Positions 27,846 to 64,000 of a stretch of 64,000 nucleotides of DNA are shown piece by piece; the first letter of the stretch is position 1; each line of letters starts with the position of its first letter. The notes under the pieces were generated by a model. The model made no database searches. It saw only the letters and a program-made list of their open reading frames with translations, and was not told where the DNA came from. Origin of the DNA: Mobula hypostoma. Lineage: Eukaryota. The stretch spans positions 5,084,001-5,148,000 of the forward strand of contig NC_086097.1 in assembly GCF_963921235.1 (NCBI RefSeq), in the 5' to 3' direction. The translations under genes and the position numbers were made by a program.

Positions 27846-29058
27846 AAGTTGAAGGATAGCTTGTTGATCTGGAGGCTGGTATAGACACAGTGTATTAAAA
27901 TACCTTATTATGGGCTACAGATTTGGCTGATCTTTGGCTGGCGGCGCTGAGATTTGCCCAATCTCCAAATGACGAATTTGGTCCTTGGATGTTCCCGCTT
28001 CCCGGTGTTCCCAATGGAGCGGCCCAAATTGAATCGGGTTCTGGTGGATTTGAACCAATAACCTAGCAGCATCATAACAGGCCGAAAGGGAAAATCTTGG
28101 ACTCTAGAATTTTTCCCTCAGTGGAATACTTTTCCTGAACTGCATCTTCTGTTGGGAAGTCTAACAGTGGAATGGATGTGGAAGAGAACATGTTCTGTTG
28201 AGGGTGTGAAGCCCCTGAGAGAGGACAAGCTGGAGATGGGGAGGAAGAGGACAGAGAAAGACAGGAAGGATCTGTGGAGCTTTCTTTGCAACAGCACCAT
28301 GATGGGATGAAGGGCCTCTTCCTTAGATTCACCATTCTGCTCCTTGGTGGGAATAGATCCCTGACTCGACTGACTTTCCTGAACTTAATCTACCACACCG
28401 AAACTCTGAAGAGAAGAGAGACTGATGTAGAAATTAGGTGGAGACATCTAAAGGGAAAGAAGAAAACTGCACAAGATGGAGAGACCCCCCTCCGAGAGAG
28501 AGAACTTCAGCAACAGTGAGACAAGGTACTAATCCCTTCCATTCCTTCAGGAGCAATGATTAGTGATTGTCTTTGGGAGGGATTAGTTGTTGGTATTCGG
28601 GGGTCAGCTCTGGGTAAATATGGATAATTACTGCTTGTCTGAAGGTGGTGCTCAATGTCTAACTGCAGACCGTGAAACTTATCGCTTTTTCTGCTGAGGC
28701 AGTGTTTCAGCCTCTTTCCAAGTCTAGAAGTATAAACGGTCTTGTTGACATCTTGTGTAACCTGCTGTTCATCATGTGTTAATGATTTGCAGGGGAATAT
28801 AGGTTGAAATGATTGTGAGTTTGTGGATGACACCAAAACTAGTGTGTGGTGGAAGTGAGGGTTTTCTAAGTTTATAATGAGATGAAGACCAGCTTGGGAA
28901 GTCGGCCAAGGAATGGTAGTTGGAACTTAACTGGGGCAAGTGCGATGTGATAGATTTTGGGAAGTTAAACCAGTGTAGAACTAAGAGGAAATGACAGGGC
29001 CCAGGGAGAGTTGTAGAACAGAGAGACCGAGGGGTACAAGTACAGAACTCACTGAAAG

Positions 29059-30258
29059 TGTCATGGTCCAGTCCCTTAACTACTCATTTTTGTTAATTTC
29101 CTTTTCCCCGTGTTCCACCGGGCTCCTTGATTAGGGCACTTGATCTTCATCTGAACCGGCAGCATAAAAACCCCGGCTTACAGCTACTCGGGGCTGGTCC
29201 ATCACTGTAGCCAGGGCGGCAATGAATGTTTCGAGCCGCCAAGAATAAGGGACCGTCTTCATGAGCTTCTCCGTGTCAAGGTACGTATTGTCAGTTGTTG
29301 TTTGTTTTTATAGTCTCGTTTTTCCGCTGCTCTGAGCTGGGATGCGAGTGGTCCGACGTTTTGTTTTGTAGGCTCCAAGTCCAGTCCAAGTCAAGGCTTT
29401 GAGTCCCGGTCCAAGTCAAGGCTTCATGTTCAGTCAAGGCTTCGTGTCCAGGTCATGTCCAAGTCTGTCCCCGTGTCAAGTCTCCGTGCTGTGTCCTGTA
29501 CTTGGGTCCACTTCCTCCGCTTCCAGTCGCCACACATGCAACAGAACGGACCAGCCGAACGCGGACCCAGCGGACACAGACATTGTCTTACAAACTCTCG
29601 CTAACCAGAGTACCCTCCTGCCAAACCTCACCCCCCTCCACCCACCCGGGTCGTCAGTAATCCAGGCAAGCCTGTTAGCTCACCTGGAGACTCCCATTGT
29701 AGTGGGAGGTACTTTCATGGTTCGGTCATTTAACTACTCATTTCAGTTAATTTCCTTTTCCCCGTGTTCCACCGAGCTTCTTGATCAGGGCACCTGATCT
29801 TCATCCAAACTGGCAGGATAAAAACTCCGACTTACAGCTGCTTGGGGCTGGTCCGTCACCGTAGCCAGGGCGGCAATGAATGTTCTGAGCTGCCAAGAAT
29901 AAGAGACTGTCTTCCGAGCTCATGTCTTCATGAGCTTCTCCGTGTCAAGATACGTATTATCTGTTGATGTTTGTTTTTGTCGTCTCGTGTCCAGCTGAGT
30001 GTTGCTGGCCATTTTGCCACTTCTTTAAGCCGGGATGCGAGTGGTCCGTCGTTTTGTTTTGTAGGCTCTGAGTCCCAGTTCAAGTCAAGGCTCTGAGTCC
30101 AGTCCAAGTCAAGGCTCTAAGTCTCAGAGCAAGTCAAGGCTTCATGTCCAAGTCCGTTCCCATGTCCAAGTCATATCCTAGTCCAAGTGTCAAGTCTCCA
30201 TGCTGTGTCCTGCACTTGGATCCACTTCCTCTGTTTCCAGTTGCCATGCATTGTGACA
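29059..30258 (+). mobile_element. Miniature two-LTR Gypsy (Tf1/sushi-like) element with 169-bp internal region
   Basis: LTR1 29059-29543 and LTR2 29713-30258; outer termini TGTCA...TGACA; TSD GAAAG/GAAAT; purine tract AGTGGGAGG before LTR2; inserted into a CR1 fragment that resumes afterwards. Confidence 0.88.
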
Positions 30259-31004
30259 GAAATTGGTGACATTGTTAGACAGGACAGTGAAGCACGGGTT
30301 CTCATGCTGTGTAAATCTGTGACTGCAAGTGTAAAGGGTCCTGTCATTGTCTAGTTGTAAGCTGGTGGGTGTCCACAGATCCCCTGTGCCAAAGATCTGA
30401 ATGAGGCCAGCCTTCTCCAGGCTTGATGCTGTGGCCTCAGGCCCTTCAGATGCTTCACCATCTGGGTGGGTGGGGGCCACATTCAGAACCAGTGGCTTTG
30501 GGGCCTCAGGACGTGGATGTGTTCTCCTGGTATTCCCACCGGCTCAGAGAGTGAAGGGTACAATGGACATTGTCTAGTTCCAGACTCAGGGCGGGGTTGT
30601 CAGTGTGTCTCCAGACAGACAGTATGACCAGGGTCTGGGCTCTGTAGATATAGTTGGAACCCCTCCTGGGCCTCACTCTCTGCTTCCCACTGGTGACTGA
30701 GCGACGGGGTGACACTCCTGGTCACATCTGCCGGGGTCAGACGATCCAACAGCTGGCTCTCTCAGCTGCTCTGAGCTCCACCCTCGCGAGTGGATGATCC
30801 ACATGGAGGCAGTCTGCAGGTCTCCCATGGTCCAACTAACAAGATGACTATTAGTTTGACAAAGAATGATAATGATCAGGGTACATAGGCTGAGAGGCAT
30901 GAATAGAGGAAACAGCCAGCACCTTTTCCCAAAGTGAAAATGGACTAATACGAAAGAACATGAGGTTAAGGTGATTGAGGGGGAAATCAAAAATGGGTCT
31001 TATT

Positions 31005-31275
31005 TATTTATTTAGAGAAATAGCATGAAATGGGCCCTCCCAACCCATCAAGCTTTGCCACCTGGCAACCCACCAATTTAACACTAGCCTAATCACAGGA
31101 CAGTTGAAAATGACGAATCAAACTTCCAACTGGTGCATCTTGGTCTGTGGGAGGAAACACATGCAGTCACGGGAAGAACAGACAAACTGCTTGCAGGGGA
31201 TGCTGGAATTGAACTCAGAACTCCAACATGATGAGCTTTAATAGTGGCACACTATCTGCTACACTACCATTGCAA
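31005..31275 (-). mobile_element. V-SINE (HE1-like)
   Basis: Reverse-complement similarity to 31558-31835. Confidence 0.6.
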
Positions 31276-31557: not shown

Positions 31558-31835
31558 GAGGTATGGTATTGTAGTGTTTAGCACAATGCTTTACTGTACC
31601 AGTGACCTGGGTTCAATTGCCATTGCTATCTGTAAGGACTTTACATGATCTCCCAGTGACTGCATGGGTTTCCTCCGGGTGCTCTGGTTTCCACCCACAG
31701 TCCAAAGATGTACCAGTTGGTAGGCTCATTGGTCATTGTAAATTGTCCCGTGATTAGGTTAGGGTTAAATCGGGATTGCTAGGTGGTGCGGCTCAAAGGG
31801 CTGGAAAGGCTGTTTCTCAACAAATCAATAAATAC
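31558..31835 (+). mobile_element. V-SINE (HE1-like)
   Basis: A-box/B-box-like head (GGGTTCAATTGCC), V-domain TGGGTTTCCTCCGGGTGCTCTGGTTTCC and a TAAA-type tail. Confidence 0.75.
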
Positions 31836-47809: not shown

Positions 47810-48250
47810 TTTCAAGATTGTTTAATGTTTAATGTCATGTCCAGTACACAAGTGTAAAGGAGAATGAAATAATTGTTACTCAGGATCAGATGCAGCACAA
47901 AAATACACAATAAGATAAAGAGCACATTGATAAAGAAACAAAATCATTATAAATACATTAGGCAGCTTATATACATAGATTGATTTTATGTCTGTAAAGT
48001 GACATTAGGCACAGGAGTGTCTGTACATGAGGTGACTGACTGGAAATTATAACATTGTGGAAGGGTGGGTTAGAGGGAAGTGCTGGGGAAAGGAACTGTT
48101 TTTGAGTCTGGTAGTCTTGCCATGGATGCTACACAGCCTCCTCCCTGATGGGAGTGGGACAAACAGTCCATGAATGGGATAGGTGGGATCCCCCATGATG
48201 TTACTGGCCCTTTTCCAGCACCTTTCTGTATATATGTCCTCAATGGCGGG
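47810..48250 (-). mobile_element. Rex1/Babar-like LINE 3' fragment
   Basis: Encodes ASNIMGDPTYPIHGLFVPLPSGRRL. Confidence 0.75.
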
Positions 48251-48462
48251 TCTACATTGAAAATTAGGAACGTAAATCTTCTGCTTGTACATATTCACCT
48301 CATTCTAATACTGGATGCATCCATTTGATGATGTTACTGGCCTTTTCCAGCATCTTTCTGTATATATGTCCTCAATGGCGGGTCTACATTGAAAATTAGG
48401 AACGTAAATCTTCTGCTTGTACATATTCACCTCATTCTAATACTGGATGCATCCATTTGATG
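48195..48462. repeat. Tandem duplication of a ~133-bp unit
   Basis: 48195-48327 is repeated from 48328 with very few differences. Confidence 0.95.
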
Positions 48463-49998: not shown

Positions 49999-50368
49999 AG
50001 TATGTAACAGAGGAATCTATGCACATGCACTTGTTCAGTGCGTCCCTAGTAGTTACAATTCTTTGTATTATTCTGGAAGCTTCTTTGATATTACATTATT
50101 TGAATAGTGGCTATCTGATAGGTTAATTCTTATCTACAAATTTGAATAGATTATCTCTTATCTATGGTATAAGAAGAGCTGAGGGCATTTGCGCATCATC
50201 TTTTTTTTTGTTTCTAGACTTCTGCCACTCTCCATTTTCAATCCTCTTTGTTTCATTAGCACTTAATAAAGTGACCATGATGCAACAGCTGTTACGCCTC
50301 TTTCTTGACTTCCGAACGAACCTTGAATCCAAAGCATCAGAGCCCAGCAATGTGTAACATCTTGGTAA

Positions 50369-52084
50369 GGCAAACAGACAGCTTCCCCATCAGGTCTGGA
50401 GTCAGGCAGGGCTGTCCCCTCTCCCCTGTCTTGTTTGTCTGCTGCATTGAACCCTTTGCGGAAGCCATCAGGAGGGATGAGGGCATAAGAAGGGTGACGC
50501 TGCCAGGCAGTGGAGGGACCCAAGTGAAAACCTCCCTGTACATGGACGACGTCACCGTCTTCTGCTCTGATCCGAGGTCAGTTCGCAGGTTGATTGGCAC
50601 CTGCGAACAGTTCGAGCTAGCGTCGGGGGCCAGGGTCAACCGCACGAAGAGCGAAGCCATGCTCTTCTGCAACTGGCCCAACCGATCCAGCTCCCCTTCA
50701 CCATCAGGTCTGACCACGTGAAGGTGTTGGGGATCTGGTTCGGAGGGGCGGAGGCGTGCAACAAGAACTGGCAGGAGCGGACTGCCAAGGTGAAACAGAA
50801 ACTGGGTCTGTGGGGAGGGCGCTCCCTGTCGATAACGGGCAAGAACCTGGTCATCAGGTGTGAGGTGCTCTCAGGGCTGCTGTACTTGGTGCAGGTCTGG
50901 CCCGTCCCCTGCTCCTACAGCTCGGAAATCACCCGGGCTGTCTTCAGATTCGTCTGGGGATCCAAGATGGAGCGGGTGAGATGGACCGCCGTGCACAAGT
51001 CCCTGGACAACAGGGGCAAGAACGTCCCCAATGTCGCCCTCACCCTGATGGCCAGCTTCGTATGTGGCTGCATCAGGTTGTGTATAGAGCCCAGGTATGT
51101 GGGCACCAAGTATCACTATGTGCCCAGGTTCTACTTGTCGCCCTGGCTACGAAGGATGGGTCTGGCCCCACTCCCGCGCAACGTCCCAGTCAGCTGGTCG
51201 TTGCCGGCATACCTGTCCTACGTAGCAAAGTTCTTCCAGGAGAACGCCTTTGACCACAGGGCCATCAGGCAGTGGTCGGCACGTAGTGTCCTGCAGGCAC
51301 TGCAGGAGAAGGACGTGATGGACACAGTGGGGTGGTTCCCTGAGCTGACTTTCCAGTTCATCTGGCAAAATGCCTCATCGCCAGATCTAACCAACAGGCA
51401 CCAAGACCTCGCATGGCTGGCAGTGAGAGGGGCCCTCCCAGTCAGAGCCCTCCTGTACGCCCGGAACGTCGTCTCTGCACCCCACTGCCCACGGGAGGAC
51501 TGCAGTGAGGAGGAGTCTGTGACCCACCTATTTGCACACTGCCAGTTCGCAAAGAGGGTGTGGAGGAGGATGGACGGGCTAGTGTCATGGTTTATCCCCA
51601 GCAGCTGCGTAACAGAGGACTCTCTGATCTACGGGCTGTTCCCGGGGACACACACGGAGACCAACGTCCGGTGCTGCTGGCAGATCATCAACTCGGTGAA
51701 AGACGCTCTTTGGTCGGCCCGAAACTTGATGATCTACCAGCACATGGAGATGTCCGTGGGAGAATGCTGCCGACTGGCACATTCTCGGCTGCAGGAGTAC
51801 GTGCTGAGGGACGCACTGAAACTTGGTGCAACCACCGCAAGGGCCCGGTGGGGAAGGACCACGGTATAGATTTCCTCACCCGCGGGAGTGGGAGGGGTCG
51901 GAGGGCGGGGAGTATACCCCTCAACAACGATGTGGTAAGCTGAACTACTGGAGTGCCACGTGGGTGGCTATAAATACGGATATGTACTGTGTATAATGGA
52001 AACGTATGTAAAGGATGAAAAGTTATTGAATGGTTTATTGTATATATTTATTATTGAATAAAGTATATTTTGAAATAAAAAAAA
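50369..52084 (+). mobile_element. 5'-truncated Tx1-like (L1 clade) retrotransposon, young
   Basis: RT motifs SGVRQGCPLSP and YMDD; 383-aa C-terminal ORF with a CCHC finger (CPREDC..EESVTHLFAHC); AATAAA and poly(A); GC/CpG-rich. Confidence 0.88.
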
Positions 52085-52202: not shown

Positions 52203-53970
52203 CGTTGGCAACAGGAGTGAAGGTAGGACCGATTAGAGATAAAGGTGGGAAGATGTGCCTGGAGGCTGTGGAAGTGAGCGAGGTCCTCAATGAATACTTC
52301 TCTTCAATATTCACCAATGAGAGGGAACTTGATGATGGTGAGGACAATATGAGTGAGGTTGATGTTCTGGAGCATGTTGATATTAAGGCAGAGGAGGTGT
52401 TGGAGTTATTAAAATACATTAGGGTGGATAAGTCCCTGGGGTCTGATGGAATATTCGCCAGGCAGCTCAACGAGGTGAGGGAAGAGATTGCTGAGCCTCT
52501 GGCTAGGATCTTTATGTCCTTGTTGTCTACGGGAATGGTACCGGAGGATTGGAGGGAGGCGAATGTTGTCCCCTTGTTCAAAAAAGGTAGTAAGGATAGT
52601 CCGGGTAATTATAGACCAGTGAGCCTTACGCCTGTGGTGAGAAAGCTGTTGGAAAATATTCTTACAGATAGGACCTATGGGCATTTAGAGAATCATGGTC
52701 TGATCAGGGACAGTCAGCATGCCTTTGTGAAGGGCAGATTCTGTCTAACAAGCTTGATAGAGTTCTTTGAGGAGGTGACCAGGCATATAAATGAGGGTAG
52801 TGCAGTGGATGTGATCCATATGGATTTTAGTAAGGCATTTGACAAGGTTCCACATGGTAGGCTTATTCAGAAAGTCAGAAGGCATGGGATTCAGGGAAGT
52901 TTGACCAAGTGGATTCAGAAATGGCTTGCCTGCAGTAGGCAGAAGGTTGTGGTGGAGGGAGTACATTTGGATTAGAGGATTGTGACTAGTGGTGTCACAC
53001 AAGGATCTGTTCTGGGACCTCTACTTTTTGCAATTTTTATTAACGACCTGGATGTGGGGGTAGAAGGGTGGGTTGGCAAGTTTGCAGATGACACAAAAGT
53101 TGGTGGTGTTGTAGAAGGTGTAGCGGATTGTCGAAGATTGCAGAGAGACATTGATAGGTTACAGAAGTGGGCTGACAAGTGGCAGATGGAGTTCAACCTG
53201 GAGAAGTGTGAGGTGGTACACTTTGGAAGGACGAACTACAAGGCAGAGTACAAAGTAAATGGCAGGATACTTGGTAGTGTGGAGGAGCAGAGGGATCTTG
53301 GGGTACATGTCTACAGATATCTGAAAGTTGCCTCACGGGTAGATAGGGTAGTTAAGAAGGCTTATGGGATGTTAGCTTTCATAAGTCGAGTGATAGAGTT
53401 TAAGAGTCACGAGGTAATGATGCAGCTCTATAAAACTCTGGTTAGGCCACACTTGGAGTATTGTGTCCAGTTCTGGTCACCTCTCTATAGGAAGGATGTG
53501 GAAGCATTGGAAAGGGTACAGAGGAGATTTACCAGGATGCTGCCTGGTTTAGAGAGTGTGCATTATGATAAGACATTAAGGGAGCTAGGGCTTTCCTCTT
53601 TGGAGAGAAGGAGGATGAGAGGAGACATGATAGAGGTGTACAAGATAATAAGAGGAATAGATAGAGTGGATAGCCAGCACCTCTTCCCCAGGGCACCACT
53701 GCTCAATACAAGAGGACATGGCTTTAAGGTAAGGGATGGGAAGTTCAAGGGGGATATTAGAGGAAGGTTTTTTACTCAAAGAGTGGTTGGTGCGTGGAAC
53801 GTACTGCCTGAGTCAGTGGTGGAGGCAGATACACTAGTGAAATTTAAGAGACTACTAGACAGGTATATGGAGAAATTTAAGGTGAGGGGTTATATGGGAG
53901 GCAGGGTTTGAGGGTCAGCACAACAATGTGGGTTGAAGGGCCTGTATTGTGCTGTACTATTCTATGTTCT
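52203..53970 (+). mobile_element. Young 5'-truncated CR1-like LINE nested in another CR1
   Basis: RT frame 52199-53911 is open except for one TAG (52973-52975). Flanked by ATTGG/ATTAG; the host CR1 at 52122-52202 resumes at 53971. Confidence 0.92.
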
Positions 53971-58189: not shown

Positions 58190-60204
58190 GAGGAGCATTG
58201 TTGGAATGGGGTACAGAGGGCTCTGAATAGACGTAGTACCTTTGATGTCTGACATGCTGCTCCCTACCAGACAGGGTGGACAGGCATCACCGGTCCTCAT
58301 CCATCTCCTAAATCTCTCACGTGTTGGCTCCAAGCGTCATACCCCGGTAAACCCTTCAGCTGGCGGGCTAAACCATATGAGGGGGTGGTGTTAACACGGC
58401 AGCACTGGGCGAATGACTTCCATGATGAAGTCACCGCCGGGGCGGAGAGGTTCACAGATGAACTATAACGGCCACGTGTTCACGACCAAGGCGAGCCACC
58501 TAGTTGGAGGAAATTGGCTGTGGTCAAACCTGGAGAGGGATGGACTCCGCCAGGTTTCAGATGCCCAAGACACGCCGCATGATGAACACACCAAAAAGCA
58601 ACCTCATACCGGATTGGTCGCAGCCTGGGTTACCAATGACCCCGCTATCCGTCTCACACTAGGGCGGACGCAATAAATGTGCTACTGGTGATCCGACACA
58701 GAAGATCGGTGGCAGAGAGAACATCACAATCACCACATGGAATGTAAGAACACTGAACCAAGCAGGGAAACTCAAGGAACTCATGCATGAGATGGAAAGA
58801 TACAACAGGCACCTCCTTGGGCTCTGTGAAGCCAGATGGAAGAACGCTGGAGAAGTGCATACTGAGGAAGGACATTTACTCTATTGTAGCGGAGAAGAGA
58901 ACAGACATGAAAATGGCGTAGGGTTCCTAGTCAACAAATCCATCAAGAACACTGTTCTAGGATGCCAACCAGTGTCAATCAGGCTCATGACCATCCGCCT
59001 GTGAGTGAAGCCACTCAACATCACAGTGGCACGAGCCTACGCCCCAACAACAGACTACAACGATGAGCACATTGAAGAATTCTACAAGATGTCATCGACA
59101 AGGTGGACATAAAAGATATTTCAATCATTCAGGGTGACTGGAATGCCAAGGTGGGCAGAGCCGCACAAGATGAGTTGGGGAGATCTCATCGGCCCCTCAT
59201 GCAATGACACCTCCAATGAGAGGGGACTACGCCTGCTGGAATTTGCCATTTGTAACAACATGGTGCTGACGAACACACTTGGAGAGAACAAAGCATCCCA
59301 AAGATGGACCAGGCATGCCCCCAGTGGTCAACATCACCAGATCGACTACATCCTGGGGCAAAGACGGCACAAATCTGGTGTGAACAGACCGAAGACCAGA
59401 ACATTCCCAGGTGCAGACGTGGGCAGTGACCATGACCTTGTCATGATGAACATCAGAGTGCGCTTGAGGAGAATCAACAAGCCAAAAAACAGTCGGCTGA
59501 GATTCGACCTTGAAGAACTGAAAGACCCCGCCATCTCTGAAGAATTTCAGGCAGCAGCTGGGGGGAAGTTTGCACCAATACTCCTCCTTGATGAAGACCT
59601 GGAGACCACCACAAATGATTTTAACACAGTGATGACAGAAACAACAAGCAAGATTCTGGGGAAAAGCCACCGCAAGTCGAAACCATGGGTCACTAACAAG
59701 ATACTGGATATGTGTGACACAAGAAGGAAATTAAAGAAAGATAAAAACACAGCAGAGGGAAGAACAGAATACAGGAAAATCAACAAGGAAATCAGGAGGG
59801 AAATGAAGGAAGCAAAGCAAAGATGGATAGCCGAACAATGTGTGGACATTGAAGACAGCCTCTCCAACAACAACACAAAGAAGGCATTCCAACTGGTGAA
59901 GGATCTTACCAAAGAAAAACAAGCCAAAGTGAACATCATCCAAGACAAAAATGGCAGAAGTCTCACAGAAGAAAAGGAAATAATGGAAAGCTGGACAGAG
60001 TACTGTTCAGAACTGTACAATTACCAGAGCAAAGGGGATCCAAGCATGCTGAATGTGCAGGAGTCTTCCAATGAGGAAGACTATCCAATCATGCATGAAG
60101 AAGTTGAAGCTGCAATACGATCACTCAAGTGAGGGAAGTCAGCCGGAGTTGACAACATCCCTGCTGAACTGCTGAAGCAAGGAGGAGAGGCCACGATAGA
60201 CATG
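58190..60204 (+). mobile_element. RTE-clade LINE 5' half (5' UTR plus APE endonuclease), copy A
   Basis: Encodes TWNVRTL, LGLCEARW, GDWNAKVG, HQIDYI and GSDH motifs. Confidence 0.88.
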
Positions 60205-62185: not shown

Positions 62186-64000
62186 GAGATGGAAACATAC
62201 AACTGGCACCTCCTCGGGCTCTGTGAAGCCAGATGGAAGAACGCTGGAGAAGTGCATACTGAGGAAGGACATTTACTCTATTGTAGCAGAGAAGAGAACA
62301 GACATGAAAATGGCGTAGGGTTCCTAGTCAACAAATCCATCAAGAACACTGTTCTAGGATGCCAACCAGTGTCAATCAGGCTCATGACCATTCGCCTGTG
62401 AGTGAAGCCATTCAACATCACGGTGGCACGAGCCTACGCCCCAACAATAGACTACAACGATGAACACATTGCAGAATTCTATAAGAAACTACAAGATGTC
62501 ATTGACAAGGTGGACAAAAAAGATATTTCAATCATTCAGGGTGACTGGAATGCCAAGGTGGGCGCAAGATGAGTTGGGGAAATCTCATCGGCCCCTCATG
62601 CAATGACACCTCCAATGAGAGGGGACTACGCCTGCTGGAATTTGCCATTTGTAACAACATGGTGCTGACGAACACACTTGGAGAGAACAAAGAATCCCAA
62701 AGATGGACCAGGCATGCCCCCAGTGGTCAACATCACCAGATCGACTACATCCTGGGGCAAAGATGGCACAAATCTGGTGTGAACAGACCGAAGACCAGAA
62801 CATTCCCAGGTGCAGACGTGGGCAGTGACCATGACCTTGTCATGATGAACATCAGAGTGCGCTTGAGGAGAATCAACAAGCCAAAAAACAGTCGGCTGAG
62901 ATTCAACCTTGAAAAACTGAAAGACCGCGCCATCTCTGAAGAATTTCAGGCAGCAGCTGGGGGGAAGTTTGCACCAATACTCCTCCTTGATGAAGACCTG
63001 GAGACCACCACAAATAACTTTAACACAGTGATGACAGAAACAACAAGCAAGATTCTGGGGAAAAGCCACCGCAAGTCGAAACCATGGGTCACTAACAAGA
63101 TACTGGATATGTGTGACACAAGAAGGAAATTAAAGAAAGATAAAAACACAGCAGAGGGAAGAACAGAATACAGGAAAATCAACAAGGAAATCAGCAGGTA
63201 AATGAAGGAAGCAAAGCAAAGATGGATAGCTGAACAATAGACATAGAAGACATAGAATAGTACAGCACAGTACAGGCCCTTCTGCCCACAATATTTTGCC
63301 GACCCTTAAACCCTACCTCCCATATAACCCCCCACCTTAAATTCCTCCATATACCTCCATATACAATGTGAAGACATTGAAGACAGCCTCTCCAACAACA
63401 ACACAAAGAAGGCATTCCAACTGGTGAAGGATCTTACCAAAGAAAAACAAGCCAAAGTGAACATCATCTAAGACAAAAATGTCAAAAGTCTCCTGGAAGA
63501 AATGGAAAGTTGGACAGAGTACTGTTCAGAACTGTACAACTACCAGAGCAAAGGGGATATAAGCGTGCTGAATGTGCAGGAGTCTTCCAATGAGGAAGAC
63601 TATCCAATCATGCATGAAGAAGTTGAAGCTGCAATACGATCACTCAAGTGAGGGAAGTCAGCAGGAATTGACAACACCCCTGCTGAACTGCTGAAGCAAG
63701 GAGGAGAGGCCACGATAGACATGCTTACCACCATCTGCAATGACATCTGGCAGACAGGTGAATGGCCGACACCTTGGACTCAGTCGCTGATCACTGTGCT
63801 TCCCAAGAAAGGCAATCTCCAACTTTGCCAGAATTACTGTACCATCAGTTTGATCAGCCATGTAAGCAAGGTAATGCTCAGAATCACCTTGAACAGACTG
63901 AGACCTCTGGCAGAAGACATCATTGCCGAGGAACAAGTAGGGTTCTGTAAGGGCAGAAGCACCACTGAGAAGATTTTCAACCTCTGCACCCTCTGTGAGA
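62186..64000 (+). mobile_element. RTE-clade LINE copy B, running into the RT domain at the window end
   Basis: Duplicates 58789-60204, then continues with PKKG, NY.TISLISH and EEQVGF. Confidence 0.9.
63239..63362 (-). mobile_element. 124-bp CR1 3' tip inserted in RTE copy B
   Basis: TSD ACAAT (63234-63238 and 63363-63367); absent from copy A; matches the reverse complement of about 53860-53970. Confidence 0.85.

Follow-up and report, generated by a model that had tools for sequence, protein, structure and literature searches.

Self-priming has been described for the Tf1/sushi group of retrotransposons in fungi, vertebrates and some plants (accessible parts of PMC6317226, PMC4600332 and PMC5341516). 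The group comprises Tf1, Tf2, Tj1, Tosmo1-3 and Tcry1, together with the vertebrate V clade represented by sushi-ichi and Amn-ichi/ni/san (PMC6317226, bioRxiv 10.1101/2022.12.06.519325, PMC4600332, in the portions available). [quoted passage not shown] The preliminary description of the locus analyzed here invoked self-priming in this group as known, which the accessible text of PMC6317226 and PMC4600332 bears out.

Short non-autonomous LTR elements have been described separately. TRIMs are defined by a size below 1000 bp, repeats of 100-250 bp and a tRNA-complementary PBS (PMC6934838, in part); the biv-TRIMs have no canonical PBS, and the available sections of PMC6934838 and PMC10886601 propose no self-primer for them. 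Among the TRIM papers found, the one on bivalves is alone in naming self-priming, and it offers no mechanism. Vertebrate TRIMs of the Helenus type include LTR-11_DR from zebrafish and LTR1/2_LCh from coelacanth, as well as elements from sturgeon and paddlefish; according to the accessible part of the same source (PMC10886601), these fish elements depend on Gypsy partners, and Helenus elements reach 1263 bp, carry a tRNA-derived promoter in the LTR, are primed by tRNA 3' ends in vertebrates and have a 4-bp target-site duplication (TSD) in animals.

The element studied here lies in a 64,000-nucleotide stretch of the Mobula hypostoma genome (NC_086097.1, 5,084,001 to 5,148,000), hereafter the window, whose own numbering is used throughout. 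We read it as one decayed copy of an old and small self-priming, non-autonomous family of the Ty3/gypsy type, and give this reading as a whole a probability of about 0.68. As in Tf1/sushi elements, its PBS complements the LTR at the presumed transcript start instead of a tRNA end, and in prediction both PBS-adjacent segments can pair with the LTR downstream of the primer; the TSD of 5 bp is shared with Tj1. Unlike them, the element is devoid of gag-pol, RT and the chromodomain integrase, hence it can be given no phylogenetic placement and must be moved in trans; and while priming was demonstrated experimentally for Tf1, for the Mobula hypostoma element we infer it. With TRIMs (plant TRIMs, PbTRIM and biv-TRIM) it shares two LTRs, a short non-coding interior, a PBS, a PPT, a TSD and the presence of several copies, but its total length of 1200 bp and its LTRs of ~500 bp lie above the limits given for the class (PMC6934838, in part), and its PBS is self-complementary instead of tRNA-complementary. 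It resembles Helenus as a short non-autonomous LTR element in fishes, and differs from it in its TATA-like promoter, 5-bp TSD and LTR-pairing PBS; a search of the LTRs for tRNA- or 5S-derived sequence yielded no Rfam match at the gathering score and no ARAGORN gene, a result that a very decayed remnant could escape. The term "TRIM-like" proposed earlier thus stands for the two LTRs, the TG...CA ends, the TSD, the short interior and the several copies, and does not extend to the size or to a tRNA-directed PBS; we keep it for an element of 1200 bp because Helenus elements of up to 1263 bp are still called TRIMs (PMC10886601, in part). In short, the element would work like Tf1/sushi and is built like a TRIM, while falling outside the TRIM definition in size and in tRNA complementarity.

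In addition to the window we used contigs from public sequencing runs. Among 24 runs listed, four contain at least half of the element's words (organism A), four contain about 0.4 of them (organism B) and the rest contain little; the list named no RNA holder. Four of the 24, namely the DNA runs X1, X5 and X9 and the run X20, which is guessed to be RNA, were aligned to positions 28762-29751 at 80% likeness and gave 1462, 1481, 1288 and 105 contigs, respectively.

Anatomy of the element and its insertion site

All features described below lie on the forward strand. The 5' LTR (LTR1, 29059-29543; 485 bp, TG...CA) and the 3' LTR (LTR2, 29713-30258; 546 bp, TT...CA) enclose an interior of only 169 bp (29544-29712); the sequence and the LTR alignment confirm the lengths and coordinates given in the preliminary description. 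The start of LTR1 was placed by comparison of the two LTRs and by contigs with unrelated flanks that terminate at 29059 (26 in X1 and 37 in X5; agreement 0.37). The LTRs are identical in 422 of 484 aligned columns (87.2%; K2P 0.144), with transitions accounting for 48 of the 62 mismatches, and since the mismatch rate outside CpG is still 10.5% (45/430), the element is old. LTR2 has additional 15-bp and 24-bp blocks and a larger number of the short tandem repeats, with units of ~18-25 bp, that occupy 29370-29475 in the U5 of LTR1. AATAAG followed by a GT-rich tract (29244-29311) may serve as a non-canonical poly(A) signal, to judge from the sequence. An intron in U5, running from a GT that resembles a donor (29281) to an AG that resembles an acceptor (29370-29371), was considered and rejected, as 46 X1 contigs, making up 96% of the depth, differ at 29281 in the same way as LTR2, so that the donor-like GT is private to this copy. 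In each of the three DNA runs, summed contig depth over the U3 core (29092-29157) exceeds 1000 times that of a single contig, compared with about 10 times at the LTR's 3' end, which indicates that a large family of LTRs has U3, and not U5, in common.

The interior consists of the PBS (29546-29556), the post-PBS arm with a decayed gag-like start (29557-29620), a segment with the C-rich internal junction (~29620-29635) and a 3' stub (29621-29700, spanned by the contigs that bridge the interior), and a PPT (29701-29709) that ends 3 nt before LTR2. The PPT reported earlier is present but decayed, with purines at eight of nine positions; another short copy found among the contigs has an unbroken run of eight purines, the same 3-nt spacer and an LTR that starts with TG. 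The element is old and decayed, and its cis signals were "retained" in the past more than they are today, given the primer mismatch in LTR1, the loss of TG in LTR2 and the degraded PPT.

Upstream of the insertion lies a fragment of the RT region of a LINE (28881-29058), presumably CR1-like, recognized by tblastn with the RVT_1-bearing ORF 52976-53908, which matches 28881-29063 with an E-value of 1.2e-8. Because the element sits inside a LINE, its imperfect TSD (GAAAG at 29054-29058 and GAAAT at 30259-30263, four of five positions matching) could be checked against uninterrupted copies. Of the three other LINE copies that the window contains, two run on from a GAAAG-type site into sequence that resembles the 3' flank past the 5 bp and the third has a deletion at this site; uninterrupted LINE contigs behave likewise (49 in X1 and 33 in X5, with loose ends at 29060). 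It is therefore well supported that the element entered an old LINE in a single insertion and that the 5-bp duplication is genuine, as originally claimed. A contig from organism C (record 30) crosses the border between the flank and LTR1 with 12 differences in 152 positions, hence the insertion is older than the split between organisms A and C.

The window as a whole is rich in decayed LINEs, with RVT_1 in three of the six ORFs scanned and zf-RVT in one, and contains no Rfam match and no tRNA gene. A GC-rich (0.545) LINE fragment at 50281-51869, with a 432-aa open frame and zf-RVT, is unlike the surrounding copies, which we take to be CR1-like. A LINE-bearing stretch has recently been duplicated locally (58789-60204 and 62186-63723; 1079 bp at 95.6% and 370 bp at 93.2%), and a 132-bp unit is duplicated in near-perfect tandem at 48195-48462 (98% match). 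A pair of inverted arms (69 and 47 nt, ~80% complementary) at 31073-31196 and 31630-31773 presumably represents two oppositely oriented SINE copies.

The primer-binding site and the predicted priming RNA

The PBS, ACGGACCAGCC, begins two bases past the CA that ends LTR1. Read in reverse complement, it is identical to 29846-29856 in LTR2 (11/11) and agrees with the corresponding site in LTR1, 29192-29202, at 10 of 11 positions. Of 5000 dinucleotide-shuffled LTR2 sequences, 2 contained a complement of at least 11 nt, and 21 of 15622 background 16-mers had one. Each of the two primer sites is preceded at a distance of 28 nt by ATAAAA (29164-29169 and from 29818), the sole match to a TATA-like pattern in its LTR. 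RNA polymerase II is expected to start at about that distance behind a TATA-like box, and ATAAAA may accordingly act as the promoter, with 29192 as the putative start of R. The first 20 nt after LTR1 contain no TGG, which makes pairing with the CCA end of a tRNA impossible. The pairing and the position of ATAAAA given in the preliminary description were thus confirmed, the latter in both LTRs.

Contigs place the mismatch in LTR1 in the context of the family: 39 X1 contigs, representing 56% of the depth, have the LTR2 letter, so that a perfect match between primer and PBS is common. The first base of the primer, position 29192, differs in 31 X1 contigs (28% of the depth) and in 84% of the X20 depth; these variants possibly represent a subfamily with another primer. 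A second, shorter complement of the PBS (7-8 nt) is present in the U5 of both LTRs (29349-29355 and 30042-30049), which could reflect a competing fold or chance.

In the predicted fold of the priming RNA the post-PBS segment pairs with U5 positions 29479-29514, a candidate side arm of a Tf1-like "pretzel", with core probabilities of 0.87-1.0. An arm at least equal to it arose in 3 of 150 shuffles for LTR1, compared with 54 of 150 for LTR2. The other arm, between the end of the LTR and the bases that follow the primer, is better than 973 of 1000 shuffles in LTR1 (27/1000 as good), with 269/1000 as good in LTR2. In the natural RNA (29192-29600) the primer:PBS duplex can be imposed at a cost of only 1.6 kcal/mol; taken whole, the 409-nt RNA does not exceed its shuffles in stability (z +1.24), and in the unconstrained ensemble the primer pairs with the PBS at only 8%, a figure from ViennaRNA, which cannot model the crossing post-PBS pseudoknot. 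The predicted side arms are compatible with a candidate "pretzel" structure, although in LTR2 they do not exceed chance.

The complementarity makes it highly probable that the element was primed by the end of its own RNA. The complement between LTR and PBS might instead be structural or accidental, with a tRNA fragment or another small RNA acting as the primer. Half-tRNAs do prime some other LTR elements as well as the Helenus TRIMs of fungi (PMC6317226, PMC10886601, in their available parts), and the second complement of the PBS in U5 would agree with such a view, but the same sources, as far as accessible, place half-tRNA priming in Ty1/copia lineages and in copia-dependent fungal TRIMs. Since this explanation must also treat as coincidental an exact 11-mer, its spacing from the putative start site in both LTRs and the absence of TGG, we regard it as very unlikely.

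Copies of the short form

Among 32 pieces listed of 4471, at least five contigs bridge the whole interior (records 6, 7 and 8 in X1, 24 in X5 and 32 in X9). Record 6 corresponds to this locus, as it matches 29251-29751 with no differences, and X1 may be the source sample; the short interior is thus not an artefact of the window. The other four differ from this copy: record 7 has 18 differences and five gaps, record 8 has 29 and 12, record 24, from organism B, has 20 and five, and record 32, from organism C, has 21 and three. Records 7 and 24 extend via the purine run into the start of the LTR and probably show one common second locus; record 8 reaches 29745, and record 32 might, with less probability, be orthologous to this locus. 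The other copies lack 5-6 nt of the C-rich junction run, and among the 12 rows listed of 80, contigs aligned across this gap number at least 2+2 in X1, 2+1 in X5 and 1+0 in X9. The junction, whose uniqueness would have spoken for a deletion after insertion, is therefore bridged by four other contigs, from three organisms.

At least three distinct short copies are certain in organism A, with further contigs in organisms B and C. Summed depth corresponds to 6-19 single-contig depths at the minimum over the junction and to 21-68 in the four interior bins between 29554 and 29685, values which, as the tool itself warns, are not copy numbers; we take the family to comprise roughly ten to a few tens of copies. 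The window holds no second copy.

The bridging contigs other than record 6 diverge from this copy by 11.4, 14.1, 12.7 and 12.1%, compared with 12.8% between the two LTRs, all with wide intervals, whereas four probably orthologous contigs are 3.6-7.9% divergent. As copies differ from each other about as much as the LTRs do, they appear to have parted at about the time when this copy was inserted, as would be expected if a short master had retrotransposed in a single burst. The sequences suggest, with good probability, that the family moved in the short form. The alternative is that a full-length self-primed element lost its interior once, after insertion, and that the locus was then copied at the DNA level, segmentally or in tandem, without ever having been mobile as a short RNA. 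Few copies are certain, none of the non-self bridging contigs (207-291 bp) reaches a flank, and the window offers no second copy, all of which leaves room for such a history; on the other hand, copies made after a deletion should show less divergence among themselves than the LTRs do, while 11-14% is seen against 12.8%, albeit with wide intervals, and precisely the cis signals needed for copying have survived. We consider DNA-level copying rather unlikely. As for the earlier claim of a non-autonomous element mobilized in trans, several short copies now speak for it, but they are read only inside the element and their mobility is deduced from divergence. The best reading is probably that of a small, old family of a self-primed, non-autonomous short form.

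Lineage, mode of amplification and implications

In translation the interior opens with ADPADTDIVLQTLANQSTLL, including "xDPA" at 29561-29572, which, we assume, is similar to the way gag begins in vertebrate sushi-type elements; likewise, we take the last 60 bp of the interior to resemble a sushi-type pol end followed by the PPT. Of the gag and pol stubs proposed earlier the "xDPA" motif stands, whereas protein searches gave no true relative that would establish either identity. A 55-aa frame of the interior matched none of 90 candidate longer proteins at E 10, and a 141-aa frame none of 37 proteins of similar length at E 1. Pfam returned one match at E 1.9, far below the cut-off, and assigned no family; a PDB search of the stubs had no match, and the top score in the ESM Atlas, 0.77, is at noise level. 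The lone match in a scan of 1.84 billion proteins, a repetitive bacterial adhesin-like protein with ~24% identity, was discarded, its score being a sum over repeats. A full-length partner was not found in viral, metagenome and prokaryote collections, where none is likely; the 24 loci that matched the DNA pattern there were rejected as relatives, having no LTR-like structure around the match and no similarity beyond the motif.

Contigs of X20 follow the PBS and the stub and stop at ~29619, with three differences that are rare among the DNA contigs; one of them, over 29521-29619, has a depth of ~30 and differences of its own. These contigs hint weakly at a longer relative that is transcribed and at a deletion point near 29620; X20 does not cover 29653-29751, and this gap is no evidence either way.

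Compared by eye with the accessible part of a published motif table (PMC3601003), the start of LTR1 fits the Sushi and rGmr1 motifs in full and that of Mag C at seven of eight positions, and the LTR ends fit the Sushi motif at 5/7 and 6/7; on the whole Sushi, rGmr1 and Mag C fit the termini about equally. Since the termini do not separate these lineages and the stub identities are putative, the assignment rests on the priming layout. The typical vertebrate sushi-type layout is, as we understand it, a primer right behind a TATA-like box, a 2-nt spacer before the PBS, a 5-bp TSD, a DPA-type gag start that overlaps the arm pairing with U5, and a G-run, TAC and TG at the PPT. On this basis the element likely belongs to the Tf1/sushi lineage. 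A short mobile family that did not arise by direct deletion of a sushi-type gag-pol, but descends from a different Gypsy lineage whose PBS is self-complementary (e.g. Mag-like) or from a family that carries host cargo, its 3' stub then not being pol, would agree with termini that do not distinguish Sushi from rGmr1 and Mag C and with stubs that no database match identifies. The sushi-type layout speaks against it, and a sequence comparison with other indexed windows, of little power at 87% identity, gave no look-alike; we find it unlikely.

For the Tf1/sushi assignment we propose the following scenario. A founder element would have lost nearly all of gag-pol, keeping both LTRs, the PBS and the PPT. 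RNA polymerase II would start at 29192 or close to it, ~28 nt past ATAAAA, and the first 11 nt of the transcript would pair with the PBS with the help of two side duplexes like those of the Tf1 "pretzel". A related full-length element, most likely a vertebrate Tf1/sushi-type chromovirus, would provide in trans the RT and RNase H that cleave off the 11-mer and use it as the minus-strand primer; the PPT would prime the plus strand, and the cDNA would be inserted by the integrase of the partner. The family would have been amplified once, before organisms A and C split, and would then have decayed. As a tentative extension, about which we have somewhat more doubt than confidence, the copies might represent a vertebrate self-priming miniature lineage that spread in trans in an ancestor of several cartilaginous fishes and in which the gag start up to ~29620 was kept because this stretch is an RNA arm of the self-priming structure. 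If so, the common deletion boundary would delimit the smallest cis element with which a vertebrate Tf1/sushi element can self-prime and be packaged.

The full-text literature we searched, from which subscription papers are largely excluded, contains no description of a self-primed TRIM, and it gave nothing relevant on such elements in cartilaginous fishes; the family may be catalogued already in Repbase or Dfam. Vertebrate Tf1/sushi elements that prime themselves and vertebrate TRIMs primed by tRNAs are both in print, the present family is small and dead, and the combination is an incremental gain. It bears on repeat annotation, as PBS finders based on tRNAs miss such elements, and the insertion can serve as a shared marker among related species. 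If our reading is true, tRNA-independent self-priming works in trans for a passenger RNA in a vertebrate, as the biology of Tf1 predicts, and nature would have supplied, in the short copies, a deletion map showing which cis signals such elements need.
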